A DNA stretch of 49,842 nucleotides, counting the filler, from Fervidicoccaceae archaeon (GTDB lineage Archaea > Thermoproteota > Thermoprotei_A > Sulfolobales > Fervidicoccaceae), in NCBI GenBank assembly GCA_038734945.1. It is 5 parts of 5 records of this genome, joined end to end, with 100 filler letters (N's around TTAATTAATTAA, not from the genome) between each part and the next. Parts side by side here need not be neighbours in the genome. Positions count along the whole stretch, not along the records: positions 44,116 to 49,842 come from JAVYOA010000008.1; 4 more parts are not named here. One strand, written 5' to 3'. Under the pieces are notes generated by a model, which did no database searches, was not told the DNA's origin, and saw nothing but the letters and a program-made list of their open reading frames with translations. Shown here one piece after another: positions 23,335-49,842 of the stretch (the first letter of the stretch is position 1; every line of letters begins with the position of its first letter). The position numbers and the translations under genes were made by a program.

Positions 23335-23578
23335 CGTGAAAATTGACGAAGTTCTAGAACTCATAGGTAAGGCTGTGCTGTCTAGGGAAACGGTTGAAGC
23401 GAAGGCTAAGCTTTGCGATTACATCACAGTCATTAACTTTATGCAAAAGAATTATCAATACTGTAGTTACGATGATGATTGTAAAACGTTTTCATGTAGA
23501 TTAGATAATTTCATCATAATGGCACATTACGATCGTGATAAGCTAAAGATAAGCGCACACTTCACGGTAAAAGTTTAA
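23327..23578 (+). CDS. viral hypothetical protein (83 aa)
   Basis: ORF in the plus-strand cluster. Confidence 0.6.
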   Translation: MLNVKIDEVLELIGKAVLSRETVEAKAKLCDYITVINFMQKNYQYCSYDDDCKTFSCRLDNFIIMAHYDRDKLKISAHFTVKV

Positions 23579-23603
23579 ATACCTCTTTTATCCATTTTCA
23601 TTT

Positions 23604-23996
23604 ATGGCAAAACAAATAGTCGTTTCGGATTCGGCGGAGCTTGTTTTTAAGCTCTTCGAAAGATACGAAGGTAAGAAGTGGGTGGACTATTTTGACAAAA
23701 CCATAAACATCGATGACTATCTTAAGTATTGGGAAGATACAACTATCTTTAGCACCGTGTTATTTAGACATCTATCTGGGCTTGAGCCTCTAGATTCTAT
23801 AGATAAGATCGCTGACTTAGTCACGCTAGTAGTTATCAATGACGATCCTGTAAATTCGTTATGGGACTGTGAACGCTTTGGTATTAACGTACCGTTTTAC
23901 ATCATGATGAGGGAACACTTGCTATCAATTGTTAAAAAGTTTAAGAATGCCAAAGTTGTGACTTACACTGAATATCTTAAGGGGGACTTTGCATGA
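23604..23996 (+). CDS. viral hypothetical protein (130 aa)
   Basis: TTTAAATA box upstream; ATGA coupling to the next gene. Confidence 0.72.
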   Translation: MAKQIVVSDSAELVFKLFERYEGKKWVDYFDKTINIDDYLKYWEDTTIFSTVLFRHLSGLEPLDSIDKIADLVTLVVINDDPVNSLWDCERFGINVPFYIMMREHLLSIVKKFKNAKVVTYTEYLKGDFA

Positions 23997-24412
23997 TAGT
24001 AGAAGCGATTAATCCTAACAGTCCTAAACGTGTTATCTACGAAGGCATGCCCGCCACGGTGAAAAAATATCTTGACTCTAAAAAGATCAAATACGAGCGT
24101 GTACCCAACGGGTTTGATCAAACTGTGTTATTCTTTGAGGGTAACCCCCAGGTTGTATGGGGTGACTTGTTCGTGAGAAGTTACTACAACCCTAAGTTTC
24201 TAAAATACGTTGCTAGGTTCTACCCTTCATTTGATGCTGTGTACTTGATTATGCCCCATAGCGCCAATGAGATCTTAGATGAACAGGCTAGTATGGATTT
24301 GCCACTTCAGGCATTCATTAGCATTTACAAATATGTAGATAGGGCAACTAAGGCTTACTTAAACACTCATTTTAACGCATATCCCCTGTTAGTGTCGGAA
24401 GAAGACCATTAG
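23993..24412 (+). CDS. viral hypothetical protein (139 aa)
   Basis: Coupled ORF with GGGGG RBS. Confidence 0.72.
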   Translation: MIVEAINPNSPKRVIYEGMPATVKKYLDSKKIKYERVPNGFDQTVLFFEGNPQVVWGDLFVRSYYNPKFLKYVARFYPSFDAVYLIMPHSANEILDEQASMDLPLQAFISIYKYVDRATKAYLNTHFNAYPLLVSEEDH

Positions 24413-24447
24413 AAAAGTTTTTTAATCGCTTTAACTACTTCTTAATT

Positions 24448-24747
24448 ATGTCCCAAAAACCAATAGTTTCCATAAACACAAACGAAAAGGCATTTTTTGG
24501 TTGGGTTTTGTCTCAACTTGAGAACCTTCCCGAAGTGGGAGAAGACGAGTTTAGAAACAAAACTAACCACTATTTTATAGACGTAAAGATTAGAGAGCCA
24601 CAAGATAAGATTATTATCGAACGATCTGGAAACTATCTAGTAGCATTCATCTATTCTACCTGTGACTCGTTCGTGTGCGCAAAGATCGTTTTGCCTAAAA
24701 TGATGAAAAAAATAATTGAGGAAATAATGGAATGGGAAAAGGACTAA
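24448..24747 (+). CDS. viral hypothetical protein, paralog of 46624-46914
   Basis: FFGWVLSQLENLPEVGEDE vs FFDWVIKMINEIPDAGQKE. Confidence 0.72.
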   Translation: MSQKPIVSINTNEKAFFGWVLSQLENLPEVGEDEFRNKTNHYFIDVKIREPQDKIIIERSGNYLVAFIYSTCDSFVCAKIVLPKMMKKIIEEIMEWEKD

Positions 24748-25214
24748 AGTAAGTCATCGTCTTTTTTATCATCCTGTTTATCTTCTTGTTCGTTATTGTT
24801 CATTAACATATCTACGTTAGTTGACTTGTTAGTTAGTAATGAGACTAGTGGCAATAAGTTATTTATGAGTCTCGATACACTAGGATCATTAAGCAATCTC
24901 AGGATGGTATCAACAACGTCCTGTTTTGTGCCAAACAAGTTGCTCATCAAGTTGGCGGTTGTCTTAAACGTCATCGCCTGTCTGTTCATGAATTCAGTTT
25001 GGATTGCAAACCAACTAGGTAGTTTCATCGCTAGCAAGTCCATTAACGCCAACACTTGCTGACCGTTGACGTAACGCAAGTTGTACGTTTGTATCATTTC
25101 CCTAGCTAACGAGATTATGACATCCATTTCTTTCAGGTTTTTCTCCTTCGCAAGACTAGTTATGAACTGGATTTCCTCAGGTGTAAAGTACTTCTCAAGT
25201 TGCATTTTGATCAT
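24744..25214 (-). CDS. viral protein, possible N-terminal ribbon-helix-helix DNA-binding domain
   Basis: YFTPEEIQFITSLAKEKNLKEMDVIISLAREMI fits the RHH helix pattern; acidic tail. Confidence 0.6.
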   Translation of the reverse strand: MIKMQLEKYFTPEEIQFITSLAKEKNLKEMDVIISLAREMIQTYNLRYVNGQQVLALMDLLAMKLPSWFAIQTEFMNRQAMTFKTTANLMSNLFGTKQDVVDTILRLLNDPSVSRLINNLLPLVSLLTNKSTNVDMLMNNNEQEDKQDDKKDDDLL

Positions 25215-25536
25215 CTAGTGCCTTTTTGATGAATTCATCTAATGTCATCTCTGGGTGTAGCCTCTTTACTGCTTTATCCAAAAACTTAACCAAGTACATT
25301 AGATCAACCTCCTCAAACTGATTTAGAACGTTAGGCGGTTTAGACTGTGAGATGATACCCACTAATAAGCCATATGAATTATCATCAAATTTAGCGGTCA
25401 TTGCGAACTCTGTGATGTTATTTTCCAAAAACGAGAGATTAATACCCTTAAGTTGGGGCATCGAAAGGAAGGGTTTTAACTTGTTAAGTGTATCCTTCGA
25501 GACTAACGCATCCTTCATAACATCAAGTAGTGACAA
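25195..25536 (-). CDS. viral hypothetical protein (113 aa)
   Basis: Divergent from the structural operon, sharing an AT-rich promoter region (TATTTAAAA). Confidence 0.68.
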   Translation of the reverse strand: MSLLDVMKDALVSKDTLNKLKPFLSMPQLKGINLSFLENNITEFAMTAKFDDNSYGLLVGIISQSKPPNVLNQFEEVDLMYLVKFLDKAVKRLHPEMTLDEFIKKALDDQNAT

Positions 25537-25582
25537 GTAACTAAAAGTGTGCTACACTATACTATTTAAAATGAAATAAGTT

Positions 25583-25990
25583 ATGGCAAGGCATAAGCCG
25601 AAAAAGACGAGTAAACTAATTTTCCCTGCAAACTGGACGGGACGATGGTTGTATGACGCTGTTGTTGCAACTCCAAAGTGGCAAGTCAATTCGTTTTTAG
25701 GAGCGCCACAGTATGCGCAATGGATTGACTACTTTTCAAGGATTAACGGTCTACAGTTAGCTCCTAAGACTAACGCTGATACTAACTTCATGAGGTCGTT
25801 ACAAGTGGGTTTGGTTACTAGCCAGATAGCGCAAGAGTACGAGAACACTAAAGTTAAACAATCAATGGATGAAAAGGCAAAGGAGCTTGAAAGACTGTTA
25901 GCTACTCCAGTGGTAAGTCAAGTAATGAATAATACTATCTCAAAGATAGGAAACTCGCCCATTATGGTGAGGCAAGAGGTAGGTGAGTGA
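25583..25990 (+). CDS. putative virion nucleoprotein/structural protein (basic N-terminus)
   Basis: MARHKPKKTSK start, first gene of a long plus-strand operon behind a TTTAAA box; structural role inferred. Confidence 0.55.
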   Translation: MARHKPKKTSKLIFPANWTGRWLYDAVVATPKWQVNSFLGAPQYAQWIDYFSRINGLQLAPKTNADTNFMRSLQVGLVTSQIAQEYENTKVKQSMDEKAKELERLLATPVVSQVMNNTISKIGNSPIMVRQEVGE

Positions 25991-26219
25991 ATTGACGTTC
26001 GAATCTCTTAGATCAGTTTTAACGCCCGAAACGCTTATAGGTATAGTGAGCGGTGCGCTGGCACTAAAATTATCACACCAGAGATTAATAGCTATAGCGC
26101 TAATCGTAGCCTCACTCTTTATCTCTAACCCGCTTCTGGCAACCGTCGCATCAATCGTTACGGTAGACCTTCTAGTTAATTTAATTGCACCTAAAATAGG
26201 GGTGTCCATGAGTGGCTAG
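25983..26219 (+). CDS. viral membrane protein (78 aa)
   Basis: Hydrophobic; GAGGT RBS; coupled. Confidence 0.65.
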   Translation: MSELTFESLRSVLTPETLIGIVSGALALKLSHQRLIAIALIVASLFISNPLLATVASIVTVDLLVNLIAPKIGVSMSG

Positions 26220-26718
26220 GAGAAAGAGCAAAGCCCTAAGAGTATCCGTTAATCCGTCTGCGGTTCAGAATTACGTAATCGGCGTTGCGTTAGGTGCTGA
26301 TAAATACATTGAAGGTTTGCTAAGAGGAGCTACCCTTTATAACGCCTGGGTAGACCAGGAGATCGCCCTGCAAGGCAAGGAGATTGGCGAATACAGAGAA
26401 GATGCCCTTAGGGACTATCTAACTACTCATCATCTTAATGTATTAGATGTAGAGAACACCATTAGGTCATGTGTAAACAATAATTTCACTTCGCCAGAGT
26501 GTAGGGAGATAAATGATTTGGTCGAAAAGACTAACTACAAGAGACTGAGAAACACCGATAGGTACATGATAGAAGCCGGCGATAAGTACAGGGCTGTCAA
26601 AGGAGATTACTATCAGTCCGCATCTCCTGCGTATGGGCTAGCGATTTTATCGTCATATCCCACAACCCAAGTTAGTGAACAACTAGGTAACATCCTGAAG
26701 AGTAAGGTGAGAACATGA
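26212..26718 (+). CDS. putative major virion (nucleocapsid) protein, basic N-terminus
   Basis: MARRKSKALR start, helical 168 aa, embedded among membrane-protein genes; function inferred. Confidence 0.55.
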   Translation: MARRKSKALRVSVNPSAVQNYVIGVALGADKYIEGLLRGATLYNAWVDQEIALQGKEIGEYREDALRDYLTTHHLNVLDVENTIRSCVNNNFTSPECREINDLVEKTNYKRLRNTDRYMIEAGDKYRAVKGDYYQSASPAYGLAILSSYPTTQVSEQLGNILKSKVRT

Positions 26719-26978
26719 GCGTACTGACTACACAGCGTCCTGACATTCCATTAGCCAGTAGCGAAATAATCTATGCTGTCATAACCGCTATCATAGTTGC
26801 AATAATGAATAACTACTTAGCTGGTGTATCGCCTTTCTACATGATCATCATAGGTATAGCTCTAATTGCACTCGCAAAAGGTGAATTTATTGGCGGGATA
26901 TTGAGATCACTGGGACTATACTTGTCTGCATACGGAATTGCTAAAGTAATAGATCAAAGGGTTCAAGTCTCCCTTTAG
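26715..26978 (+). CDS. viral membrane protein (87 aa, about 3 TM)
   Basis: Hydrophobic; GGTGA RBS; ATGA overlap. Confidence 0.7.
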   Translation: MSVLTTQRPDIPLASSEIIYAVITAIIVAIMNNYLAGVSPFYMIIIGIALIALAKGEFIGGILRSLGLYLSAYGIAKVIDQRVQVSL

Positions 26979-26987
26979 GGGAGTATA

Positions 26988-27146
26988 ATGAAAAAGATTT
27001 TTTTGATTCTGTTAGGTTTAGCTCTTCTTGGTTTCGCTTTAGCTTTTCGGTTTAAAATTAATGTAAGAAATGGCGGGTCGTGTAACATATCACGTTATCA
27101 GGCAATGCTAGCACAGGTTCAGGACTCAGAAAGTGACTACTTATGA
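26988..27146 (+). CDS. small signal-anchored viral protein (52 aa)
   Basis: Manual translation MKKIFLILLGLALLGFALAFRFKINVRNGGSCNISRYQAMLAQVQDSESDYL; GGGGAG RBS. Confidence 0.6.
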   Translation: MKKIFLILLGLALLGFALAFRFKINVRNGGSCNISRYQAMLAQVQDSESDYL

Positions 27147-27319
27147 AAGTATACGATTGTCATGGCTATTTTGTAATGGAAGACGATAAAACCTACTTTT
27201 GCGAAAAAACTCCTCCGTCTCCTAACGCTCGATGGGTACAACTCTCGCTTTTTAACTCCATTTTCTGCGTTCCATCCTCAACCACACACGTGCGTGCTGA
27301 CTGCAAGAGACTATTTTAA
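27143..27319 (+). CDS. small Cys-containing viral protein (58 aa)
   Basis: Manual translation MKVYDCHGYFVMEDDKTYFCEKTPPSPNARWVQLSLFNSIFCVPSSTTHVRADCKRLF; ATGA coupling. Confidence 0.55.
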   Translation: MKVYDCHGYFVMEDDKTYFCEKTPPSPNARWVQLSLFNSIFCVPSSTTHVRADCKRLF

Positions 27320-27331
27320 GCTTACTAAGAC

Positions 27332-27517
27332 ATGTACGGCAAAACCGATATGTACATAATTCTGTTCATATTAGCTTTGGTAGCCACGCTATACGTTACG
27401 GGCTATTTGGGAAGTACCCAAAACTTGTTAATAATGATGATAGTAGCATTCATTGGTATCGTGCTATTAAATCAATACCAAGAAAATAAGATAATGGCGA
27501 AAGAAGTAGTAGCGTGA
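27332..27517 (+). CDS. viral two-TM protein (61 aa)
   Basis: Hydrophobic ORF in the operon. Confidence 0.65.
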   Translation: MYGKTDMYIILFILALVATLYVTGYLGSTQNLLIMMIVAFIGIVLLNQYQENKIMAKEVVA

Positions 27518-27524
27518 CCTACCA

Positions 27525-27788
27525 ATGTCCTTTTTTGTTGACGTAGGTGTATATGCGATTTTTTTCGTTTTAGCTAGTTCTACGGCTTATCTTCTAAAAT
27601 CTAGATTTCCCAATGTTAATGGGCGTCTGTTACAGGGCATTATAATCTTGGTTGCTGGTTACGGGTTGAGTGCGCTAGGTACAGGTATAGCTGGCGATAC
27701 AATAACGATAGGCGGATTACTTACTGCGATAACGGGAGCCTTCGCCCAAGTGGCTCAATCTGTTCCCGCACTGGGGTGGTTAAGATGA
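27525..27788 (+). CDS. viral membrane protein (87 aa)
   Basis: Hydrophobic, Gly-rich helices. Confidence 0.68.
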   Translation: MSFFVDVGVYAIFFVLASSTAYLLKSRFPNVNGRLLQGIIILVAGYGLSALGTGIAGDTITIGGLLTAITGAFAQVAQSVPALGWLR

Positions 27789-28093
27789 TCACTAGCCTAG
27801 GTTTCTCAAACGCAAATCTTGACACAGTATCTATAGCGTCTCTTCTAATCGTTTATGTTATCTCATCGGCGTCCGCCACAGGTATTACGAAAGTATCTAA
27901 CCTAGGACATGGTTACTTTAGGCTCATTCAGTTCGCTGTGGCAAGCGTCATTACATATTTCATCTCGTTAGTTACCGAAACCGGTGGTATGCTATCGGGT
28001 CTGTTGACGGTATTGCTGGTAGAGGGTATTCTGAACTTCTTAGCTTACAAGCTTAATCTAGGCGCACTTGTGGATCCGGACTATTCAGGGTGA
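27785..28093 (+). CDS. viral membrane protein (about 102 aa)
   Basis: Three hydrophobic segments; ATGA overlap with the previous gene. Confidence 0.68.
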   Translation: MITSLGFSNANLDTVSIASLLIVYVISSASATGITKVSNLGHGYFRLIQFAVASVITYFISLVTETGGMLSGLLTVLLVEGILNFLAYKLNLGALVDPDYSG

Positions 28094-28097
28094 GGAT

Positions 28098-28199
28098 ATG
28101 GACAATGTCCTAGTAGCTTTCCTAGTGCTTCTAGTGTTTCTGGTAGTGTTATACGTTTACCTATACCCACGATCAAGCTATAACGTTTTTTCGCTGTGA
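28098..28199 (+). CDS. single-TM micro-protein (33 aa), related to 39881-40003
   Basis: MDNVLVAFLVLLVFLVVLYVYLYPRSSYNVFSL; GGTGA RBS. Confidence 0.55.
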   Translation: MDNVLVAFLVLLVFLVVLYVYLYPRSSYNVFSL

Positions 28200-28203
28200 A
28201 ACC

Positions 28204-28368
28204 ATGGCTGAAATTATTCAAGATATCATAAAGATAGTTATTCAAGTAGCAAAGTATACGTTAGTACCACTCATCAAGCACACATTAGAAGGATTCTTTT
28301 ACGCCATGATGGCATTCTTACGTTATGCTAATGACATCACTAGGCGGTTAATGGTACTGATAAGATAG
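28204..28368 (+). CDS. small amphipathic protein (54 aa), paralog of 40008-40193
   Basis: GFFYAMMAFLRYANDITRRL vs GIFYDVMASFRYVNDITRRV. Confidence 0.65.
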   Translation: MAEIIQDIIKIVIQVAKYTLVPLIKHTLEGFFYAMMAFLRYANDITRRLMVLIR

Positions 28369-28400
28369 TACACATAAGATTATTAACATGATTTTCACAT

Positions 28401-28679
28401 ATGCGTGTCACGGTTGGCGCTCATTCGTTTTTGATTACAACGGAAGAACCAGACCACGGTTTGATATCCAGATGTTGCGGTAAACTGAATCCTGCATTTG
28501 TCAAGGCAATCGAGGAAGAAAACCTAGACTTTATCTACTTACCTAGATATGACCCTAACGCACCCGAGAGATGCGTTTACGTTACAATTGAACAGAATAC
28601 TAAGATCATTAAGGACTATTGGTTCTGCCACGTTTTTAACTTGCTACGAGAATATCGCAATTTCTTAGAAGTTCATTAA
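28401..28679 (+). CDS. viral hypothetical protein (92 aa)
   Basis: ORF in the plus-strand cluster. Confidence 0.65.
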   Translation: MRVTVGAHSFLITTEEPDHGLISRCCGKLNPAFVKAIEEENLDFIYLPRYDPNAPERCVYVTIEQNTKIIKDYWFCHVFNLLREYRNFLEVH

Positions 28680-28691
28680 CTGTCATAAGTC

Positions 28692-28922
28692 ATGCTAAGT
28701 GATATTGTTAACGCTATTGAGTCCTTTGATAATGCCATCTCTGAGTATAGACAGAAAACTTATCAAGCGTGTGAGATACTTCCGCCAGTGAACTCTGTAC
28801 CCTCGCTATTCGCTAATCTTCCTGTTATTATCCTGTACATCATTACGTTACCCATACGTTTCCTTTTATGTCCATTACTTAACACAATAGGAAACCCATT
28901 ATGTTTGCTTTACAATTTAGTC
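28692..28922 (+). CDS. Cys-rich membrane protein, partial; allele of 38135-38617
   Basis: 60 of 77 residues identical to the 160-aa protein by manual alignment. Confidence 0.75.
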
Positions 28923-29022
28923 NNNNNNNNNNNNNNNNNNNNNNNNNNNNNNNNNNNNNNNNNNNNTTAATTAATTAANNNNNNNNNNNNNNNNNNNNNN
29001 NNNNNNNNNNNNNNNNNNNNNN
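28923..29022. other. artificial contig spacer
   Basis: N-run, TTAATTAATTAA, N-run. Confidence 0.98.
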
Positions 29023-37996: not shown

Positions 37997-38096
37997 NNNN
38001 NNNNNNNNNNNNNNNNNNNNNNNNNNNNNNNNNNNNNNNNTTAATTAATTAANNNNNNNNNNNNNNNNNNNNNNNNNNNNNNNNNNNNNNNNNNNN
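37997..38096. other. artificial contig spacer
   Basis: N-run, TTAATTAATTAA, N-run. Confidence 0.98.
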
Positions 38097-41206: not shown

Positions 41207-41316
41207 GCATAGCGAATTTGATCATCCTAGTTATAAGTGGATTGGTAACCCTATTTATAATGTGGAAAGTATTACCAAAATTTACTAGTAAAGTTATTGG
41301 GGTGTTGAATAAATGA
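41203..41316 (+). CDS. single-TM micro-protein (37 aa)
   Basis: MSIANLIILVISGLVTLFIMWKVLPKFTSKVIGVLNK; GGTGA RBS and ATGA overlaps on both sides. Confidence 0.62.
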   Translation: MSIANLIILVISGLVTLFIMWKVLPKFTSKVIGVLNK

Positions 41317-43343
41317 TCACAATTTCAGTCCCTAAGGGTGCATTAGTTTCATCGCTTGGAAAACAATACTATCAACAGACACTTTACTACAATGTTGACT
41401 ACAGTAGTTATCAAACGTCACCCGCCCCGGGCTTCTTCAATCCTGTTACGATTGTTAACTATCCCGCTGAGGTTGTCGTATCTACTAGACCGGTATCATT
41501 GAATCTAGAGACTCCAGTTCAATATGTGTCAACGGGTAACATAAAACTAGGTTTCAATACTAACGGAAGTGACCTAGCGGGTAATGCGCTAGTGTCAGGT
41601 ACCGGGTCACTATTTCTATGGATCAGGGGATCGTTCCCCTCACAGATCATACCTTCCACTACGCTGGAACTAGACGCTTATCTTCATGCTATGGACATGC
41701 TAAGCGCCATAAACGCCTACATGGTAATGAATGAGATATTAAATGATGACTTCTTTGAAGCCACGGGAATTAATGAAGTCAAGAAAAGTTTAATACGAGG
41801 ATACATTTGCAATAAGCTAAAAGTAGACGTAGCGATGTCATTATTTGGTAATACAGTTCTAGCGCCATATGTTCAACAAGTCAATGCCCTACCCGTAGAG
41901 CCTTGTTTTGACATTTCATACCAGGAGATAAGTGATATTGATACAGTAATATCAGAATTTTATGACACAAATCAAACAGTTAAGACACTAGAGAACATGA
42001 TTACCAATTTATCTAATACGTTAGCATATCTTAACCAAAAAGTAGAACAAATCATACAAGAATTACAACCATCAGAAACTATTTACGTTGAAGATATTGA
42101 AGTGTTTCTAAGAAACGCTACGCTAACGTTGGCGTTACAGTCAAAAGAAGTACTTGAACCGTTTGATGTGACTGGTTCACAGTTAAGTACGTATGTGTTA
42201 GATGTAGTCACATCGTTGTTATCATCTAATTTTACACAAATAACATCTACTATCTCAACGTTCGCATCGATTACTTCACAAGCTAATACATTATTATCAA
42301 CTGGACAGATCAACCAAGCTATAGACTTTGTATTTTCATCATTACAAACGTATGTTAATGCACCACAGGCAAGTACATACCTAGCAATTATTGCGGGCTA
42401 TTTATTAGAATTAGCAAACGTGAATAACATAAACACGGCATATCTGCAAACTGTTCCCCAGGTCGTGGCATTATCTGCTGTGCTTTCATCTTTATCCAAT
42501 GATATTTACAGTCAAGTATTTCCAACATTCAAAATAAATCTCTACAACGCATCGCACGCTTTGAACTTCACTAACCCACCTCCACCACCTCCGCCTGCGT
42601 TACCATCTTCACCACCTACGCCACCTAAACCTTCGTTACCATTACCACCAGGATTACCACCTTCGCCACCGCCTCCTTACATGATTACATCACCGCCTCC
42701 ACCACCCCCTCCATTGCATAAGATTGTTAGCGCATTAAGGACTGTAAAGCACAACAATTACGCTAACGTGATCATTGAATTGTCGCCGAAGGGCGGACAT
42801 GTATGGAACACTGCACTGTTAGCTTACGCTTATCAGTACCAGTTAGCGTTTATGTTGGCTAAGCATGGTTTCGTATGTCCTGCAATAACCTCAACACCAC
42901 AAACGAACGGATTAGACTACTCGCTTGTAAATAATAACATAACAATAACGTCAAATAATAGTCAGACTAACGTGACTGTCCAAAATAAAACTACAACACA
43001 GACCGGATCAAGTAACGTTAGTGTGCAAAACAACACTACAACACAGAACCAGTCAAGTAATGTTACAACATCAGAATCAGTACAGACTAGTGAAGCAATA
43101 CAATCACAATCATCAACTCAACAAAGTCAATCAAACAGTGGATCAACAAATCAAGGATCAACCACCCAAGCTAACATGACTATGCAAAATAACAACTTCT
43201 TCGAGAATCAGGGATTATCTAGTAACGCACCTGATTTTTTCAATTACTTAACCTATACCGCTAATCAAGGAATGTTTAACAATACTCTCAATTACATACC
43301 CCATAAGGTACCGCCAGGTAAACTAAAACATGGATTTATGTGA
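41313..43343 (+). CDS. large putative virion protein with coiled coil, polyproline linker and S/T/Q/N-rich tail
   Basis: 676 aa; PPPPPPPALPSSPPTPP... tract; tail with multiple N-x-S/T sequons. Confidence 0.75.
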   Translation: MITISVPKGALVSSLGKQYYQQTLYYNVDYSSYQTSPAPGFFNPVTIVNYPAEVVVSTRPVSLNLETPVQYVSTGNIKLGFNTNGSDLAGNALVSGTGSLFLWIRGSFPSQIIPSTTLELDAYLHAMDMLSAINAYMVMNEILNDDFFEATGINEVKKSLIRGYICNKLKVDVAMSLFGNTVLAPYVQQVNALPVEPCFDISYQEISDIDTVISEFYDTNQTVKTLENMITNLSNTLAYLNQKVEQIIQELQPSETIYVEDIEVFLRNATLTLALQSKEVLEPFDVTGSQLSTYVLDVVTSLLSSNFTQITSTISTFASITSQANTLLSTGQINQAIDFVFSSLQTYVNAPQASTYLAIIAGYLLELANVNNINTAYLQTVPQVVALSAVLSSLSNDIYSQVFPTFKINLYNASHALNFTNPPPPPPPALPSSPPTPPKPSLPLPPGLPPSPPPPYMITSPPPPPPPLHKIVSALRTVKHNNYANVIIELSPKGGHVWNTALLAYAYQYQLAFMLAKHGFVCPAITSTPQTNGLDYSLVNNNITITSNNSQTNVTVQNKTTTQTGSSNVSVQNNTTTQNQSSNVTTSESVQTSEAIQSQSSTQQSQSNSGSTNQGSTTQANMTMQNNNFFENQGLSSNAPDFFNYLTYTANQGMFNNTLNYIPHKVPPGKLKHGFM

Positions 43344-44015: not shown

Positions 44016-44115
44016 NNNNNNNNNNNNNNNNNNNNNNNNNNNNNNNNNNNNNNNNNNNNTTAATTAATTAANNNNNNNNNNNNNNNNNNNNNNNNNNNNN
44101 NNNNNNNNNNNNNNN
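44016..44115. other. artificial contig spacer
   Basis: N-run, TTAATTAATTAA, N-run. Confidence 0.98.
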
Positions 44116-44144
44116 CATCGTCCATTCTTCTTCCAGCTAGAATT

Positions 44145-44450
44145 GAAGCCCCCCCCGACGGCATCCACCGCCACCCCCCATCGCCTCCGGCGACCACCGC
44201 CCAACCACGTAACCTACGTGTTTGGACGGCGACCGCCTTCACAGGCGCACGGGAGATGACCGTGATGCCGTCAAGGTGCTTACGATCCAGCGCAAGCACC
44301 AGGGGACGTGGGTTAGGGCATCATTTGGACGTCAGAGCCCACTGGCGCCACCGGGATGGACGCCCATCGCGCCCCTCCCCGTCCAACTAGGGCGTAAAGG
44401 GTTCTTCATACGCTCTAAGGCGTATTGAGGCGCACCCTCTCGCCCAATAC
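44145..44450 (-). ncRNA. candidate structured viral non-coding RNA
   Basis: GC island in an AT-rich genome with about ten stems, a GUGA tetraloop and a G-U-completed 10-bp stem on the minus strand; TTTTTATT box at 44475-44468. Confidence 0.5.
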
Positions 44451-44497
44451 ACTATAAGTTAAAAACAAATAAAAACCTTTTGCTCCGTTACACGTGG

Positions 44498-44809
44498 CTA
44501 GAATAACTTACCCTGTGTCTTCACCACGGCATTAGACTTGATAACTTCAAAGTATAACTTCTTTCTAATTTGCACCGGCTCGGCAACAACACAGTACAGG
44601 GTTCGATTAATCACTTTACCGCACACCAACTGAGGAATCGTTGGCTTTACTGACACGTCATCATCAAACGTTAGCTTAATGACGCCGGATAGCTCATACG
44701 GCGGTGTCTGTTGAATCTCTTTATTCTCATTAACTGAAAAAATAGAAGACGGACTTACGAAACGAGACGCACCCGTGCGGGTGCTATCATTCACTTTTTG
44801 CGATTGCAT
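44498..44809 (-). CDS. viral terminal-repeat protein (103 aa)
   Basis: Second copy at 17959-18107; leaderless, with a TTAAATA box. Confidence 0.72.
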   Translation of the reverse strand: MQSQKVNDSTRTGASRFVSPSSIFSVNENKEIQQTPPYELSGVIKLTFDDDVSVKPTIPQLVCGKVINRTLYCVVAEPVQIRKKLYFEVIKSNAVVKTQGKLF

Positions 44810-44834
44810 GACAATAACTAGATCGTTGAGGTAT

Positions 44835-45236
44835 TTAAGCGTTACGGTTCGCTAGTTCTTCCTTAAGCTCCTCTAGGTACTCCTTTAGTGCTTCTTTGGC
44901 TTTGGATTTTATTCCTACTGCCGTCTCAGACCTTACTATAATCGTGACAACGCCGATAGGAGCCTGGCAATAGCCTACACATTCAACATCTATCTCAACG
45001 TCATCACTGTAACCTTTGTCAAAAATCAGCACAATTTTACGGTACTCTTCGCTATCTTGATAAACATACGTGACCTGACTATACCTACTCTGATGAGGCG
45101 AATAAGCTCTAGCTATGGTTTCAAAAAACCTGGCTCCAGACATAGAAGAAACAACAGAAGATGACTTCCTAACTTTTGATATGTTTTTAATAGCCCACTC
45201 GATCAACTCGATTTTATTCTCCAGCTTTGATGACAT
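44835..45236 (-). CDS. viral hypothetical protein (133 aa)
   Basis: Its stop lies within the repeat boundary. Confidence 0.7.
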   Translation of the reverse strand: MSSKLENKIELIEWAIKNISKVRKSSSVVSSMSGARFFETIARAYSPHQSRYSQVTYVYQDSEEYRKIVLIFDKGYSDDVEIDVECVGYCQAPIGVVTIIVRSETAVGIKSKAKEALKEYLEELKEELANRNA

Positions 45237-45272
45237 GAGTATCTAATTAGCAAAACTAAAAAACAATGTGAC

Positions 45273-46061
45273 TTATGCGTTTTTGCACTGTCCATGAATC
45301 AAATTATAGACGTCAATGACTCCATAACAGCTATTGATTGCTAGCTTAGCTCTCTCCATATCGTCATATTCTAACGCATTCAGCTTGCCCATGACTTTAA
45401 ACATGTTTACGATCTGCATGTACATATCTATTAGTATCTGAATCTCGCTTAGCTTCTGTAATTGTTCGTGTTGGTCTAGATGTTCGTTTTGAATGAAATC
45501 ATCTACCAGTCTGGTCATTTCAGATTGTATCTTAACTAATTCATCTACTAGATGCTTCACATTGTAATCTTCTAATTTCTTGCTTGTTATCACCTTAACA
45601 GCGTATTCTGACGAAGACTTAACGTATTGTAGATAGTACTTCATTCCGTTTGCATTCTTTTTTAGATTCTCATCATCGATCTTAATCATCGTTGTATTCA
45701 TGTACTTTAGAATGTATTGCTCTAGTTCTTCTAATGGCTTTTGTAATTTCTCAATGCGATAACCGAGTATGTTATGCACTCTAACCTTAGCCTTGAAACT
45801 ATTCAGCTTAATCAGTAATGTTAGATAATTAAAATCTTCAGCAACGTAATTATGATGATAAATAAACCCGTTTAGTTGTACAATTAAGTCAGCAACATCT
45901 CTGTTTAAATCAGCCAAATTGAATAGATCCCATTCTCTAGATAGCAAGTACAGGGCGTTTAGCCCCAACTGTGTCACCCTTAACTCTTCAGTCACAGCCT
46001 TCTGAAAGTTTATCAACGCATCAAGAATATCTAATTTTTCTTGTACGTGTTTAATTGACAT
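45273..46061 (-). CDS. all-alpha viral protein (262 aa); terminal-protein candidate
   Basis: GGTGA RBS; amphipathic helices throughout; same strand as and downstream of the polymerase. Confidence 0.7.
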   Translation of the reverse strand: MSIKHVQEKLDILDALINFQKAVTEELRVTQLGLNALYLLSREWDLFNLADLNRDVADLIVQLNGFIYHHNYVAEDFNYLTLLIKLNSFKAKVRVHNILGYRIEKLQKPLEELEQYILKYMNTTMIKIDDENLKKNANGMKYYLQYVKSSSEYAVKVITSKKLEDYNVKHLVDELVKIQSEMTRLVDDFIQNEHLDQHEQLQKLSEIQILIDMYMQIVNMFKVMGKLNALEYDDMERAKLAINSCYGVIDVYNLIHGQCKNA

Positions 46062-46079
46062 TTAACTCACCATAAGCAT

Positions 46080-46631
46080 TTAGTTGTCAGAGGTTAATAA
46101 CCTTTTCGGTAAACTGACATGCCTGAAAATTTCATATGTTTTTGACATTATTTGAAATGTTGACACACATTCAGCAACCCAGTTAGCTCTTTCCATATCG
46201 TACTCATAAATAGACGATAGTTTTACCAAGTCCTCATCATTCAACGGTTCAACTAGTATCATGAAAGTGGGATAATTGTCATTTATCACCGAGTCTAACA
46301 CCTTAACGTATCTAGCAATGTAACGTTTCCAGTTTGGTAGCGAACACAAAAGTGAAATAGGCGAACCGTCCACTATCGTACCGCCGGGTATTTCTTTAAG
46401 GAAGTCATGAAACTCTCTATCAATTTCGTTTTTAGGACTATAACGTACCAGTCTCATGTTAAGTGCGTCAGATACTATTTTCGATATCTGACTCTTGCCA
46501 GCCATTGGTATACCGTCAATTACCACCTTCATCTGATTAACTGATATCTTCCACTGTTTGCCAATTTCATTAACTAGATTGATAACATCCCCGGCTTTGA
46601 ACTCAACGCTAAAGTTATAATTATCAATCAC
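46080..46631 (-). CDS. P-loop nucleoside/nucleotide kinase-like protein
   Basis: VVIDGIPMAGKS Walker A and TIVDGSPIS (degenerate DR motif). Confidence 0.65.
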   Translation of the reverse strand: MIDNYNFSVEFKAGDVINLVNEIGKQWKISVNQMKVVIDGIPMAGKSQISKIVSDALNMRLVRYSPKNEIDREFHDFLKEIPGGTIVDGSPISLLCSLPNWKRYIARYVKVLDSVINDNYPTFMILVEPLNDEDLVKLSSIYEYDMERANWVAECVSTFQIMSKTYEIFRHVSLPKRLLTSDN

Positions 46632-46914
46632 TTAACATCACCTTCTGAATTTGTGCTATAATCTCATCTCTACACTCACTAATGCTTTCACATGATGTTA
46701 CTATCTCTATCACCTTCCTCTTTTCGTTAGTTACTGTGATGGTATTGTGACTCTCCTTTAACTTCAAGATCAGCATGTCATTATTCTCCAGTACCATAAC
46801 CTCTTTTTGACCAGCATCTGGAATTTCATTTATCATTTTGATGACCCAGTCAAAAAACTTGGTTCCAACAGAGTAGTCTATCTTGTTTTCAAAATTCATG
46901 AATGAACACCCCAC
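46624..46914 (-). CDS. viral hypothetical protein, paralog of 24448-24747
   Basis: Shared FFxWVxxxxxxxPxxG motif; real start probably MNFENK. Confidence 0.7.
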   Translation of the reverse strand: MGCSFMNFENKIDYSVGTKFFDWVIKMINEIPDAGQKEVMVLENNDMLILKLKESHNTITVTNEKRKVIEIVTSCESISECRDEIIAQIQKVMLSD

Positions 46915-46984
46915 TCAAAAATGAACATGAAAAAAACCACAAATCTTAACTTTTCGCTTTGTCTTGAATTAGAACATTGCATAT

Positions 46985-47266
46985 CTAGTTATTGCTTTGA
47001 CTGCTATTTAAATATTTCTGTTTGAACTCCTCAGTGATGTCTTTCATGGTTTTTGAATCATAAACTACAAACTTAGTCTCTGGGTTATCTCTAGCAAACT
47101 CGATTATCTCATCCTTCGTGACTGGTACTAATACAGTTATAACATCGTCAATCATGATCTCCTCGCCGTCAGAGCTTATCTCCTGTATGTCTACGTCTTG
47201 TACCTCAAGCATGTAGGGGTACTGGTGATGATCCCTTACTTCATACTTTAGATCTTCCAACAACAT
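46985..47266 (-). CDS. small acidic viral protein coupled to the polymerase
   Basis: TAATG overlap with the polymerase stop; about 22 D/E versus 9 K/R in 93 aa. Confidence 0.72.
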   Translation of the reverse strand: MLLEDLKYEVRDHHQYPYMLEVQDVDIQEISSDGEEIMIDDVITVLVPVTKDEIIEFARDNPETKFVVYDSKTMKDITEEFKQKYLNSSQSNN

Positions 47267-49077
47267 TAGACTGGTTCACCTATCTTTTTCTCATCACCAG
47301 AGTATTTAAGTCTTGCTTTAACCAGGACTTTCTTAGGTACAGTGATGCTAACATTGTATGCTAAACGTGATTTGATAGCCTTGAAGTTTTGAAACAGGTA
47401 CATTTTGAGAGGATCAGGATCATAGTGTATTTCCACATCTTGGTCTTTTTTTACACCTTTAGCAACAATGTTTTTCTTCCCGATCGCCACATTTCCGTCT
47501 CTGCGATAATTAACCGGTACCCACTCCCCAGGATCTTGTGTGAAAAAGTAGAGTTTTTTGCCTAAATGGTAAATGTTACCCTCTTTTTCTATCTTCAACT
47601 GTCCCAAACCATCACCTAGTGTCTTAAACTTCAGTTTGGTATCTAATATCTTAACTTCGCTATACTCTCTTATCTCTCGAGTAAGGTGAAGTGAATCCGT
47701 GTCAGTGTACTGTAACCCTTCCTTATTCTGTTTCATTAACTGATAAAGGTATAACCTAGCGTATGCGGTGACGTAACTGGCGATGGCTACGGAGTATCGA
47801 GGTGTTAACTCTTCCTTTGTGTAGACAATTTCATCTATCCGTGTGTATACTTTACCGTTAAATAGAGTGCGTCCTTCTCTCTTGATTATGTTAAGTATTT
47901 CCGGATCCTTCACTATCATAGCTCTTGCTTTATGCAAACCAAACTTACCGTAGGCGCTATTGAGTATCATTTTAGCTACTGTCCTAAGCGTTTGCCCTTC
48001 TACTCCACCTTTCTTTTCACCTTGCTTTTTCATTTCGTAGTATTTATCAATAAACTCGGTAAACAGATAGTCAGATTTAAACCATTTACTACTAATAAAC
48101 TGTATCTTGCATTCCTCATAACGTAACGCTTGTACTTCCGGAGTAGTTAAGACAGCTTCATTTTCTAATACTTGGGTAAGAATGTTCTCACCGTTAAATC
48201 TTGTCTTAGTGACAACTGGCATTAAGTCAGTATCGCATTTGAATCTGACACGGTGGAATCCTAGATAACCACGCTTGATAGCTTGATTGAATGACATGTC
48301 ATCTTTTACTGGCATAGTAGGATATCTAAAGGAGCGCATGACCGTAGGGTACAGTGAATTTACGTCATAAACCTTTTGTCTTTCACTGAATGATGAAATC
48401 ACTAGTGGATCTACACGTCCGCCTCGATAGCTTTCAATTATCATAGGATCATTTATTTCAGTTATTACGCCCGCATATTTGTCAGGATCCATAAGCGCTT
48501 TCTTTAATCCCTGAGCTTCTGGCATCATTTTTAAGAGTATTCGGAATGAAATGCTAGGTAGAGTTGTACCATGTGTTTCAATTCTATTAAAAAATCTAGT
48601 TAAAACTATGTGAAGCGCCCTAGCGTCATTTCTAGCAAGCTCCTCGCCGTGTTCATTAACGTAATTATTCCACTCTTCAGGGTTAGTCTCTATCTTATCG
48701 TAGTTTATTTGCGCCTCTTCCTTGTAATTTAACTCTGGTGCAAACGTCTTAATAGCGTTCTTTAGCGAAGTTGTCAGTATAGGCATACTATCCCTTACCC
48801 ACGTACCACCCGCAAAGTTAATGGAGAATGGAGCATCAAAGCTAGCGTCCTCAATCATGTCAGCAAACATTGATATCCTCAGAAGCGACATATCGTACTT
48901 GGCGTTATGGATAAAGATGGTAGACTTAGCGTTTATCATGTACTCTAACACTTTTTTCTGATCCGTAAAACACGTCTCTGACGTTCCGTCACTGAAACAT
49001 CCCACAGCAAAAACGTGACGAATTTCATCACCTTCTCGTTTAAACTTTGCCTCACTATCATACGTAAGAAATTTCAT
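47266..49077 (-). CDS. polB: protein-primed family B DNA polymerase
   Basis: ExoI YDSE, ExoII HNAKYD, SYRGG, YDVNSLYP, KMILNSAYGKFG, YTDTDS, KKLY; TPR1-like and TPR2-like insertions; 603 aa. Confidence 0.95.
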   Translation of the reverse strand: MKFLTYDSEAKFKREGDEIRHVFAVGCFSDGTSETCFTDQKKVLEYMINAKSTIFIHNAKYDMSLLRISMFADMIEDASFDAPFSINFAGGTWVRDSMPILTTSLKNAIKTFAPELNYKEEAQINYDKIETNPEEWNNYVNEHGEELARNDARALHIVLTRFFNRIETHGTTLPSISFRILLKMMPEAQGLKKALMDPDKYAGVITEINDPMIIESYRGGRVDPLVISSFSERQKVYDVNSLYPTVMRSFRYPTMPVKDDMSFNQAIKRGYLGFHRVRFKCDTDLMPVVTKTRFNGENILTQVLENEAVLTTPEVQALRYEECKIQFISSKWFKSDYLFTEFIDKYYEMKKQGEKKGGVEGQTLRTVAKMILNSAYGKFGLHKARAMIVKDPEILNIIKREGRTLFNGKVYTRIDEIVYTKEELTPRYSVAIASYVTAYARLYLYQLMKQNKEGLQYTDTDSLHLTREIREYSEVKILDTKLKFKTLGDGLGQLKIEKEGNIYHLGKKLYFFTQDPGEWVPVNYRRDGNVAIGKKNIVAKGVKKDQDVEIHYDPDPLKMYLFQNFKAIKSRLAYNVSITVPKKVLVKARLKYSGDEKKIGEPV

Positions 49078-49109
49078 ACTTAATTGTTTCTAATGCGGGG
49101 ATTAAAAGC

Positions 49110-49814
49110 TTGTGTATCCGTGATATCATCATAAATAACGGTGAGGCTTATGCTACATGCAATGACGATGAGAAAAGGATAGTCATGTGTGCTTTCGAGA
49201 AGTACAAACGAATACTTGAGGAAGCGAGAGTCAAGCGGGCACTTAAGGAAAAATTCAACACTACAGAAAAGGAGAAGATAGCACTAGCAGAGTGCTTTGC
49301 CGATCACCCTAACCGTGAGTACTATGTTACCGTACCGTCCCTATTGCTTAGAGACAATGATGATATGTGTTTTTACTCATTTCAGCAACCTCTAGCATTG
49401 GGTAACGCCGAGTGCAAGTTTGTGAAAGTTGGCTATCCTATTCTAGAAGGAGACTTTAACGTTCACGATAGCACGTACGTTTTAGCAGGCGAGTTAGGGG
49501 TTATGGACTTTTTGGCACGGACTAAGGGTATAATGTGCGATGACAAGTGTAAAGAAGCGGGTTATCTAGTTTTGCCTATCGCAACGTTGCTTTTTTACGA
49601 AGCGTTTGGCACAACGTTATTGCCTAAGTTCAGCATAAGAAAAGTTATAATTGACGGACAAGAAAAGCCATTTAGAGATTTCGCAGTTAAAAAAGTTGAA
49701 GACGCTATAGCAAAACTTGGCGTACATGATGAAAAATTAGACTACGCTCTTGGCAAGGTTAAAAGTGCTAGTTTTCTCAAGAGTTTTATCTTGTCTGTTA
49801 TTCCATCGATCTAG
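49110..49814 (+). CDS. viral hypothetical protein (234 aa, Cys-containing), divergent from the polymerase
   Basis: Long ORF with a TTG start; no motif recognised. Confidence 0.7.
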   Translation: MCIRDIIINNGEAYATCNDDEKRIVMCAFEKYKRILEEARVKRALKEKFNTTEKEKIALAECFADHPNREYYVTVPSLLLRDNDDMCFYSFQQPLALGNAECKFVKVGYPILEGDFNVHDSTYVLAGELGVMDFLARTKGIMCDDKCKEAGYLVLPIATLLFYEAFGTTLLPKFSIRKVIIDGQEKPFRDFAVKKVEDAIAKLGVHDEKLDYALGKVKSASFLKSFILSVIPSI

Positions 49815-49842
49815 AATGTAAGAGATAGCATTTTCTAGCGCA

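Follow-up and report, generated by a model that had tools for sequence, protein, structure and literature searches.

The GC-rich island at the start of one viral contig from a Fervidicoccaceae archaeon assembly is the true outermost end of a viral genome, within an inverted terminal repeat. It corresponds to the outermost non-coding 300 bp of this ~705-bp repeat, and the most likely explanation is that it encodes a small RNA, a putative assignment to which an even chance may be given. Its terminal position in the repeat, the strong fold of one of its strands and a virus-type promoter facing into it are the reasons why it is probably either a new non-coding RNA or a telomere structure. The sole RNA proposed so far for the family of Acidianus bottle-shaped virus (ABV) is a prediction in one isolate. 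The element described here is discrete and testable: its ends are exactly placed, a promoter candidate and a predicted start and stop are available, one strand is preferred, and natural variants show one compensatory change. Transcription would make it the first structured RNA encoded in the terminal repeat of an archaeal virus; failing transcription, it would represent a hairpin telomere of a phi29-type replicon. Both cases would open a practical way into end replication in hyperthermophiles, and into how bottle-shaped and other protein-primed archaeal viruses start replication and package their DNA at 80°C or more.

In the window, meaning the whole stretch of 49,842 nucleotides analysed, N/TTAATTAATTAA linkers connect five contigs, and the island lies in the first ~335 nt of contig C8. 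The very beginning of this contig is not viral. Positions 44116–44149 are identical at 33 of 34 nt to host contig C2 (237515–237548), where they belong to an uninterrupted chromosomal gene, and the assembly of run X1 has no cover before 44161. This piece, which is not part of the element, is an assembly chimera, host DNA having been fused to the viral end in this assembly alone; the viral DNA begins at the C-run, at about 44150. The assembly is thus corrected for the opening 34 nt of the contig. The start at 44145 proposed in the earlier note moves inward by the same token, and the helix suggested as a possible closure of the whole domain is lost, since its TGAAG strand (44144–44148) falls within the host-matching piece.

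The position of the island in a viral terminal repeat, only presumed before, is borne out by independent assemblies. In runs of three other studies, single contigs span the island and ORF103, a gene that lies entirely within the repeat, joining 44151–44161 unbroken to 44781–44855 at 99% identity. The unitigs extend over 44151–44855 (X15), 44161–44855 (X1) and 44152–44781 (X5), and all dead-end on the outer side, at 44151, 44161 and 44152, respectively. A fork is observed at 44855, leading either to C8:741 onward or to a loose end equal to C5:196–225 (X1, X4 and X15, three of four runs), and the two exits share the same orientation in independent runs. C5:1–195 matches C8:546–740 in the same orientation, with 95% identity. 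Outer dead ends together with this fork are the signature of an inverted terminal repeat of ~705 bp (44150–44855), of which one copy is assembled and the second is deduced. The repeat unitig is also ~1.4–3 times as deep as most unique unitigs in X1, X15 and X5, contig depths being weak evidence. Because all four runs differ from the window at 44288, none of them is simply the assembly of the window. The C-run at 44149/50–44156 (feature 44150–44156 on the plus strand, 3'-GGGGGGG on the template strand) is the physical genome end, in keeping with the independent contigs that start at 44151 and 44152 and with the C-run of the ABV and ABV2 ends; it is presumed to be the reiteration used for protein priming.

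These assemblies also bear on the suspicion that the whole island could derive from a different, GC-rich organism, as a chimera at the end of a contig. Its location at a contig start beside a linker, the abrupt jump in composition and the 34 nt that are truly chimeric would all fit such an artefact, which is nevertheless hardly credible in view of the unbroken contigs from three other studies. At least half of the sampled words are moreover contained in 16 of the 24 runs listed, and 20 runs from nine studies contain some part of them (0 of these 20 being on record as RNA). Matches to the island are absent from the rest of the genome and from the phage collection, in which the blastn alignments do not exceed ~40 nt and are no better than chance (E at least 0.1).

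The virus itself is a new distant relative of ABV, an ampullavirus-like linear double-stranded DNA virus. In tblastn against ABV, 13 stop-to-stop frames (15 rows) match at E ≤ 1e-3 with 24–55% identity; a few of these are reverse-strand shadows of the same genes, the real homologues including ORF174, ORF167, ORF166, ORF346, ORF150b, a glycosyltransferase and PolB. Contig C8 on the one hand and C5 plus C7 on the other carry complementary ABV-like gene sets, for a total of 22.6 kb compared with 23.8 kb in ABV. PolB carries the protein-primed type B polymerase domain (PF03175), and all genes from 44498 to 49077, PolB included, lie on the same strand. The traits of an Ampullaviridae end are found here together, namely the inverted terminal repeat, the C-run start, and ABV core homologues accompanied by a protein-primed family B polymerase. 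The closest PolB relatives (P0001–P0004) are 70–98% identical (71–77% for P0002–P0004) and lie on contigs of 2.6–4.3 kb, too short to reach a genome end. Searches among viral contigs gave one 24-residue match for ORF103, none for a 25-mer or for PolB, and 80 loci from unrelated phages (23–31% identity) when PolB was aligned. No ORF103 relative was found among 199 pattern matches in metagenome contigs, and one such contig retrieved with a 20-mer (L093) shares 21 nt alone and was set aside as unrelated. Genome contigs gave no match to a 24-mer and two distant loci (26–29%) in the PolB alignment, and a family-level genome search found the element in 0 of 7 relatives. None of these collections thus yielded a homologue of the element, which counts against an RNA gene.

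The contrast in composition is sharp, as initially noticed: the island (44150–44450) has 64.8% G+C, compared with 39.7% for contig C8 overall. Its 65% is comparable to the values of the structured RNAs of the host (63.2% for the 16S rRNA, 68–72% for two tRNAs), in a genome of 43% GC. Folded as RNA, the segment 44150–44460 reaches −137.4 kcal/mol on the plus strand (z −5.4 relative to dinucleotide shuffles) and −178.1 kcal/mol on the minus strand (z −7.8), and folding with DNA parameters at 37°C gives z values of −4.6 and −6.5, respectively. In each of these four runs, 0 of 100 shuffles fold as well, so that the dense pairing previously perceived by eye stands on both strands, with an advantage for the minus strand. 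Among 146 window-strands of 300 nt from the three viral contigs, the minus strand of the island takes the first place (z −9.7) and its plus strand the second (z −4.5), with a mean z of −0.07 for the remaining 144 (sd 1.26, minimum −3.88). Heating separates the two strands: the minus strand still beats its shuffles at 75, 85 and 95°C (z −7.8, −4.7 and −5.6), whereas the plus strand loses its advantage (z −1.85, −0.84 and +1.08). DNA-parameter folding at 75–85°C yields energies that grow with temperature, and lone pairs, and was judged uninterpretable.

The minimum free energy (MFE) structure of the minus strand pairs 228 of 311 nt. All the helices listed beforehand are indeed present at the coordinates given for them, including the 10-bp stem at 44275–44300 with its single G·U pair on the minus strand. 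Perfect Watson–Crick inverted repeats of at least 6 bp number 14, compared with 10.9 ± 3.2 in shuffles (23% of 200 shuffles reach this count), and those of at least 8 bp number 2, compared with 0.74 (13% of 200). Since these counts are not above those of the shuffles, the short helices and the crossing 8-bp helix (44222–44229 with 44379–44386) are individually no more than expected by chance, and the pseudoknot that had been built on the latter is not upheld. The G·U pairs are likewise no evidence by themselves, because their proportion (17 of 114 pairs) equals that of the shuffles (18 of 105). A search for an internal direct duplication of the island scored 22, which does not exceed the shuffles (mean 17.4, maximum 30). 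Among Rfam 15 families, two tRNAs alone reach the gathering threshold over the whole window, with nothing in the island; cmscan of 44116–44700 on both strands at E ≤ 10 gives five weak matches (plant miRNA precursors, LhrC, UPD-PK2, a snoRNA), none of them close to its gathering score.

On the minus strand, four domains separated by linkers of 1–6 nt fill 44155–44445. The 5' domain, or domain 4 (44390–44445), is formed by a 12-bp helix (44445–44434:44402–44390) around the hairpin 44425–44420:44413–44408; this helix, the first base of which coincides with the predicted transcription start, has a pair probability that goes from 0.99 at 37°C to 0.83 at 80°C. Domain 3 (44305–44383) consists of stacked helices, including 44366–44359:44333–44326 with a pair probability of 0.92–0.97. 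Domain 2 (44275–44300) is a 10-bp hairpin with a 6-nt loop (0.96 at 37°C, 0.94 at 80°C), in which an A·C mismatch of the plus strand becomes a U·G pair. Domain 1 (44155–44274) is a long imperfect hairpin of ~51 bp with its apical loop at 44212–44214, and it holds 8 of the 17 G·U pairs. Its helices (44274–44243:44186–44155, 44237–44223:44203–44189 and 44220–44215:44211–44206) have mean pair probabilities of 0.94–0.98 at 37°C and 0.80–0.93 at 80°C, and no variant falls in this domain, in four runs, among the 40 of 279 differences listed. The 5/2 internal loop of domain 1 was inspected by eye as a K-turn candidate and is not canonical. In the MFE structure, the G-run at 44151–44155 pairs with 44301–44305 with a probability of just 0.20–0.37, and none of the hairpin loops of the G-rich minus strand is GCA.

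The natural variation consists of six linked SNPs, five of which touch four pairs of the minus-strand MFE structure, the sixth (44288) lying in the loop of domain 2. A compensatory change replaces A-U by G-C at 44332:44360, in the named helix of domain 3, and pairing is kept on the minus strand alone at 44363:44329 (G·U to A-U) and 44371:44319 (C-G to U·G). At least one compensatory double change arises in 2% of simulated trials, all the variation being one linked haplotype and hence one evolutionary sample. The pair 44369:44322 is broken by its variant, and this break of one of the four touched pairs counts against an RNA gene.

The same variants speak to whether the island is translated, either as the 68-aa ORF (44222–44428) or through the open plus frame 44118–44387, which includes a 44-aa ORF (44256–44390). 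Both frames are open in the window, and four of the six SNPs are synonymous third-position changes in the frame 44118–44387 (chance about 0.10, binomial), which also weighs against an RNA gene. The C>T change at 44288, however, interrupts the 68-aa ORF in four of four runs by replacing one of its Gln codons with a stop; four of the six SNPs fall at codon position 1 of this ORF; and a 1-nt deletion at 44302, seen in one X4 contig, would shift both frames. Pfam has no match for the island frames at E ≤ 1, the genome end is too close to the ORFs for a plus-strand promoter, and open frames arise by chance in GC-rich DNA. A coding function is thus very improbable, and the non-coding character attributed to the island in the earlier note holds.

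The preferred reading as a small RNA gene also draws on the sequence that adjoins the island on its inner side. The BRE/TATA-like promoter GCAAAAGG-TTTTTATT, previously spotted on the minus strand at 44483–44468 and directed towards the genome end, is confirmed as a sequence motif: AAAAG[N]TTT[AT]4 occurs six times in the 22.6 kb of viral sequence, compared with 0.41 ± 0.66 in 100 shuffles, i.e., a ~15-fold enrichment. Three of the six copies are clear gene promoters, 35–37 nt upstream of the starts of ORFs of 99–177 aa, and the copy facing the island, which has no downstream ORF, resembles the ORF177 promoter GCAAAAGCTTTTTAAAA. This promoter would fire outward, with a predicted start at about 44446–44444, near G44445. 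The transcript would run off the genome end at the C-run, since oligo-T tracts are absent from the minus strand of the island; we infer both the firing and the position of the 3' end. Both genome ends would give rise to this G-rich RNA of ~295 nt, which may fold into four packed stem-loop domains (44445–44390, 44383–44305, 44300–44275 and 44274–44155) and stay folded at 80°C. By analogy with the phi29 RNA and the RNA predicted for ABV, it might act at the genome ends in protein-primed replication or packaging. It would be unusual for a transcript to have the end of the genome as its 3' terminus, a point against this reading.

Archaeal transcription terminates at oligo-T tracts. A T5-A-T3-G-T5 tract (44461–44475, minus strand) overlaps the TATA box just past the stop codon of ORF103 and, as read from the sequence, is a possible terminator of this gene. 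Since the promoter-like tract doubles as this T-rich terminator, it may merely end ORF103, and this dual character counts against an RNA gene. ORF103 (44498–44809, minus strand) is itself directed outward from its own TATA (TTAAATA, 44838–44832), and has no Pfam family above cut-off; its part of the repeat shows one difference in 405 nt in run X1. The island could then be a passive flank, either a read-through 3' UTR shielding the ORF103 mRNA or a GC clamp preventing fraying of the duplex end, with no separate RNA and no specific fold. Such a role would be consistent with its location directly downstream of ORF103 on the same strand, with 65% GC compared with 40% at a linear end (63%, thermophile-like, for the putative host 16S) and with individual helices that are not above chance. 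It is nevertheless improbable, because the T-tract and the enriched promoter motif both stand between ORF103 and the island, because a clamp needs no strand bias such as that observed (z −7.8 for the minus strand, whereas the plus strand loses its signal from 75°C upwards), and because there is a compensatory change besides the wobble changes that keep pairing on the minus strand alone.

Another possibility, tentative and clearly behind the RNA gene, is that the working form is a folded DNA telomere, i.e., the G-rich 3'-ended strand when it becomes single-stranded during protein-primed strand-displacement replication. Terminal protein and polymerase would be positioned by the hairpins that lie beside the 3'-G7 tail, or these hairpins would shield the end, as they do in the telomeres of Streptomyces and at the ends of parvoviruses. 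Seven nucleotides separate the structure from the physical end, and hairpins 1–6 nt apart occupy the first 300 nt; this position and the G·T-tolerant pairing equally fit a single-stranded DNA telomere, which counts against an RNA gene. The DNA-parameter folds at 37°C beat the shuffles on both strands, the virus encodes a protein-primed type B polymerase, and the ABV and ABV2 ends bear a small C6-N2-G5 palindrome. As described in PMC4513846, the 3' overhangs of Streptomyces telomeres are ~300 nt long and consist of packed palindromes bound by priming proteins. The likeness extends to a linear replicon with a terminal protein (deduced here), to ~300 nt of packed, very stable hairpins on the 3'-ended strand, to the homopolymer run that opens the SCP1 ends, and possibly to an extreme end that pairs with an internal run, enclosing two hairpins. 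Packed palindromes over the first ~170–300 nt of the 3'-ended strand are indeed what the four domains and the DNA z of −6.5 amount to here. In contrast to Streptomyces, where an internal origin is combined with end patching, phi29-type end-initiated strand displacement is expected here; GCA or G:A-sheared loops are absent from the minus-strand fold, and an outward promoter adjoins the structure.

The terminal hairpins of parvoviruses are comparable folded ends. To our knowledge, phi29-type replication needs no terminal hairpins, which counts against a telomere, and the latter leaves unexplained an outward promoter with its start exactly at the inner edge of the island. The helix between the G-run and CCCC that would give a Y shape has the low pair probability quoted above, DNA folds at 75°C and above are not judgeable since the parameters misbehave, and the ABV relatives do without such an island. 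The absence of the island from ABV, ABV2 and ABV3 counts equally against an RNA gene. The RNA and telomere readings could also be combined in a transcription-activated origin, which we consider quite unlikely. The outward promoter would drive RNA polymerase through the GC-skewed 300-bp end, leaving the G-rich nascent RNA as an R-loop on the C-rich protein-capped strand, and the displaced G-rich DNA would fold into the same heat-stable hairpins. The duplex end would stay open at high temperature, and the 3'-GGGGGGG tail would be offered to the terminal protein and the polymerase. In this case, the fold of the RNA and that of the single-stranded DNA would belong to one and the same device, at both ends.

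If the small RNA gene is retained as the preferred reading, its closest points of comparison are the RNAs of phi29 and ABV. The phi29 pRNA is encoded by an end-proximal non-coding gene transcribed towards the end, beside leftward early genes that include the protein-primed polymerase; it is 174 nt in size, has loops that pair between molecules, and works with a portal and a packaging ATPase. This layout is matched by position alone, as the motif at 44483–44468 points to the end beside the polymerase gene block, the transcription being predicted. The size and shape of the pRNA (~120–174 nt, with a three-way junction) differ from those of the predicted RNA (~295 nt, four serial domains), which would moreover have two gene copies, in the repeat, the second being deduced. 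The pRNA family, presumably RF00044 in Rfam, is absent from the Rfam matches at E ≤ 10, and the resemblance to pRNA that had been suggested is not supported.

According to the ICTV profile (PMC5882107), which summarises Peng et al. 2007, ABV has a putative non-coding RNA proposed to serve in packaging, and a review lists ABV with the viruses that have no detectable ATPase domain (PMC4124505). The ABV RNA and the present element share the lineage (ABV-like proteins at 28–55% identity), the non-coding character and the location at the same end as the protein-primed polymerase gene. Their sequence similarity is limited to a 12-nt match (E 1.1), at chance level. We take the ORF-free stretch 374–996 of ABV to hold its RNA gene. 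Seven of eight stretch-strands of this region fold with z values of +0.05 to +1.7 and one with −2.2, i.e., with no signal; the non-coding end regions of ABV and ABV2 show no fold signal either, and Rfam has no match on ABV 1–1100. The likeness to the predicted ABV RNA is therefore not sustained. The GC island is missing from the ABV ends, whereas the element here lies inside the repeat and abuts the physical end. The ends themselves are more alike: ABV starts with TCCCCCC and ABV2 with CCCCCC, similarly to the C-run observed here, the ABV3 record having no C-run start, and the terminal repeat of ~705 bp compares with 590 bp in ABV and about 435 bp in ABV2.

The window joins five contigs of an archaeal bin (1.34 Mb, 9 contigs, 43% G+C) through 100-nt linkers, each N44-TTAATTAATTAA-N44 (17859-17958, 28923-29022, 37997-38096 and 44016-44115). 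Three of its segments are viral, at 39-40% G+C: 17959-28922 (contig C5), 38097-44015 (C7) and 44116-49842 (C8). The element studied corresponds to the first ~335 nt of C8, immediately 3' of a linker. In the initial 34 nt (44116-44149), 33 bases are identical to part of a gene (C2:237515-237548) on the chromosome of this bin, and that gene is unbroken in the host contig C2. These 34 nt are an assembly artefact; the remaining DNA is not. The TGAAG/CTTCA helix proposed to close the domain was built on these host-derived bases and is thus void. They are followed by eight C's, then by the GC-rich island (44150-44450).

Part of this sequence is present in 20 of the 24 public sequencing runs listed in a search with 44116-44700 (9 studies), and 50% or more of the sampled words in 16; the 20 positive runs include none recorded as RNA. 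Four runs from four studies (X1, X4, X5 and X15) were aligned over the whole of C8. All four differ from the window at 44288, and are therefore not copies of this assembly. Whole contigs bridge the island and the viral gene ORF103 in X1 (44161-44855) and X15 (44151-44855), with 7 differences each from the window, and in X5 (44152-44781), with 6. Their outer dead ends all lie within 10 nt of the C-run, X1 having zero cover before 44161. In the reference bottle-shaped viruses ABV (Acidianus bottle-shaped virus) and ABV2, the initial bases are TCCCCCC and CCCCCC, respectively. We conclude that the physical genome end lies at about 44150. That the island itself is an assembly artefact or foreign DNA looks extremely improbable.

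At 44855, the path forks. One branch is C8; the second, found on a contig in three of the four runs, is exactly C5:196-225, and C5:1-195 is 95% identical to C8:546-740 in the same orientation. A one-sided dead end with two same-orientation exits is the signature of a collapsed inverted terminal repeat in an assembly graph. The ABV-like gene sets of C8 and C5+C7 are complementary, with the protein-primed polymerase PolB on C8 only, and the homologues of the glycosyltransferase and of ABV ORF166, ORF167, ORF174 and ORF346 on C5 and C7 only. The viral contigs sum to 22.6 kb, versus 23.8 kb for ABV. The depth of the repeat contig in X1, X15 and X5 is ~1.4-3x that of most unique contigs, contig depths being weak evidence. 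The island therefore lies, as the earlier note had supposed, in an inverted terminal repeat of ~705 bp (44150-44855), the outer dead end and the fork being seen in independent runs. This repeat comprises the island, a 47-nt AT-rich spacer and the complete, outward-facing ORF103 with its own TATA box. One copy was assembled, and a second island would be located at the other genome end. When the two assembled forms of the inner repeat are compared, nine of their ten mismatches cluster within C5:1-55 (17959-18013, compared with 44661-44715) and the remaining one lies ~40 nt further on; this reflects either divergence between the two copies or a mixture of strains at the contig end.

All the helices listed from the initial inspection are present, but perfect inverted repeats are no commoner than in dinucleotide shuffles: 14 of at least 6 bp versus 10.9±3.2, and 2 of at least 8 bp versus 0.74, a count of 2 being reached by 13% of 200 shuffles. 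Taken alone, the listed helices prove nothing and, given these chance-level repeats, neither does the crossing 8-bp helix behind the suggested pseudoknot. The overall folding energy is another matter. The RNA fold reaches -178.1 kcal/mol (z -7.8) on the minus, G-rich strand and -137.4 kcal/mol (z -5.4) on the plus strand; DNA parameters give z -6.5 and -4.6, respectively, and 0 of 100 shuffles was as good in each case. When 146 window-strands of 300 nt were scanned over all three viral contigs, the island ranked first (z -9.7) and second (z -4.5), the other 144 having a mean of -0.07, an sd of 1.26 and a minimum of -3.88. At 75, 85 and 95 C, RNA parameters give z values of -7.8, -4.7 and -5.6 for the minus strand, and of -1.85, -0.84 and +1.08 for the plus strand. 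GC-rich structured RNAs in a lower-GC genome are a thermophile pattern. With 65% G+C, the island is in line with the 16S rRNA (63.2%) and two tRNAs (68-72%) of the bin, versus 43% for its genome.

Further insight comes from one haplotype (X1, X15 and part of X4) with six island differences from the window, mapped on the minus-strand MFE structure computed from the window sequence alone. Positions 44332 and 44360 are pairing partners, changed together from A-U to G-C; 44363 (partner 44329) turns G.U into A-U, and 44371 (partner 44319) C-G into U.G. One pair is broken, at 44369, and 44288 lies in a loop. Read on the plus strand, the 44363/44329 and 44371/44319 changes would each leave one haplotype with a mismatch. 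When six changes were placed at random 20,000 times, 2% of the trials showed one or more compensatory doubles, and 1% a compensatory double together with no more than one broken pair. This variation is a single linked haplotype and counts as one sample. The compensatory pattern could also have arisen by hairpin-templated mutation; however, the changes affect both helix arms, which simple one-arm correction fails to explain.

The C>T change at 44288, common to all four runs, converts a Gln codon of the 68-aa ORF (44222-44428) into a stop. Four of the six SNPs hit first codon positions of this ORF, a single-base deletion at 44302 in one X4 contig would put every plus frame out of register, and a Pfam search of three island frames gave nothing at E<=1. 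The island is not protein-coding. One reservation concerns an alternative open plus frame (44118-44387), in which four of the six SNPs occupy third positions (binomial chance ~0.10); this frame has no room for a promoter, and the chance of a coding island is minimal. The 68-aa ORF owes its open state to the C that the window has at 44288, a base that could be an uncommon variant or an error of the assembly.

The putative BRE/TATA-like promoter GCAAAAGG-TTTTTATT (44483-44468, minus strand), assigned by motif match, proved to be more than a loose resemblance, since the motif AAAAG[N]TTT[AT]4 has 6 copies in the 22.6-kb virus versus 0.41±0.66 in 100 shuffles. Three copies lie 35-37 nt upstream of the start codons of 99-, 130- and 177-aa ORFs (the one upstream of ORF177 being GCAAAAGCTTTTTAAAA), another lies within a long ORF, and one more across the possible start of a short ORF. 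The remaining copy, at 44483-44468, is intergenic, with no downstream ORF; the ORF-promoter spacing places its predicted start at 44446-44444. The fold from G44445 begins with a 12-bp helix (44445-44434:44402-44390), the pair probability of which is 0.99 at 37 C, falling to 0.83 at 80 C. The island minus strand has no run of at least four T's, so that transcription would run off the genome end. The predicted RNA would thus extend over ~295 nt, from 44446-44444 to the genome end, with four putative domains (44445-44390, 44383-44305, 44300-44275 and 44274-44155). The T-rich tract at the promoter site may instead be no more than the ORF103 terminator.

A promoter-driven structured RNA encoded in the terminal repeat has about an even chance of being the right reading, and its position would suggest a role at the genome ends, in replication or packaging. 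A folded DNA telomere devoid of RNA role is rather unlikely. The structure does begin 7 nt from the end, and packed hairpins fill 300 nt of the 3'-ended strand, reminiscent of Streptomyces replicons, in which the palindromic 3' overhangs measure ~300 nt and the SCP1 type starts, like the island end, with a homopolymer (PMC4513846). However, the Y-closing helix is weak (probability 0.20-0.37), GCA loops are absent and the promoter is left unexplained. An island acting as a GC clamp, or passively flanking the 3' side of ORF103, seems improbable. RNA and DNA folding could also be combined, outward transcription through the GC-skewed end forming an R-loop, with the G-rich strand released in folded form and its 3'-G7 tail open to protein priming; this is a long shot.

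With a cut-off of E<=10, Rfam 15 gives no match within the island; in the whole window, two tRNAs alone pass its thresholds. A terminal GC island is lacking in ABV, ABV2 and ABV3, and the fold signal is absent from their ORF-free end regions. The RNA predicted for ABV reportedly has a phi29-like layout in the original ABV paper (Peng et al. 2007); ABV2 and ABV3 were described by Gudbergsdottir et al. 2016. The likeness to phi29 pRNA was not supported: the element is not a pRNA family member, and at most functions like an end-proximal viral RNA. No island homologue was obtained from phage, viral, metagenome or genome contig collections or from family-level genomes; the closest PolB relatives are on short contigs.

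The only match to the ABV and ABV2 end regions is a 12-nt identity, TCAATACGCCTT (44417-44428, minus strand; 939-950 in ABV and 794-805 in ABV2), at chance level alone (E 1.1 each), which ties the island 5' domain to their ORF-free end region. Two direct copies of CATGTAATACGCAACGG are found near it in both viruses, and AATACGC may be a shared protein-binding word. ABV also bears a small terminal palindrome, C6-NN-G5 (1-23 and the other end), whose central pair differs between the two ends (TT versus AA), and ABV2 has CCCCCCTGAGGGG (1-16) at both ends. Such an arrangement resembles a terminal hairpin loop in flip/flop orientations, with possible relevance to the replication of ampullavirus ends.

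C8 is found in public runs of 9 studies at 90-100% identity, under soil, manure and hot-spring metagenome labels and two coded organism names, one small manure-labelled run giving contig depths of about 30-370; this spread of habitat labels is odd for a virus of a thermophile-like archaeon. Contig C4 has 42,358 nt in the genome assembly and extends beyond 17858, where the window has a linker, so that two assembly versions differ. C1 and C3 have their first 100 nt in common, the last 100 nt of C2 seem to resemble those of C6 (the end scoring 76% over 340 nt), and parts of C2 are matched by C6 at 83-87%; repeats or a second host strain are present in the bin. Finally, a 676-aa viral ORF (41313-43343, plus strand) contains a long proline-rich block (PPPPPPPALPSSPPTPPKPSLP...), located where the scanned region is most C-skewed (42500-42799, with a GC skew of -0.45 and 47% G+C), then a Ser/Thr/Gln/Asn-rich tail, and its product is probably a structural or surface protein.
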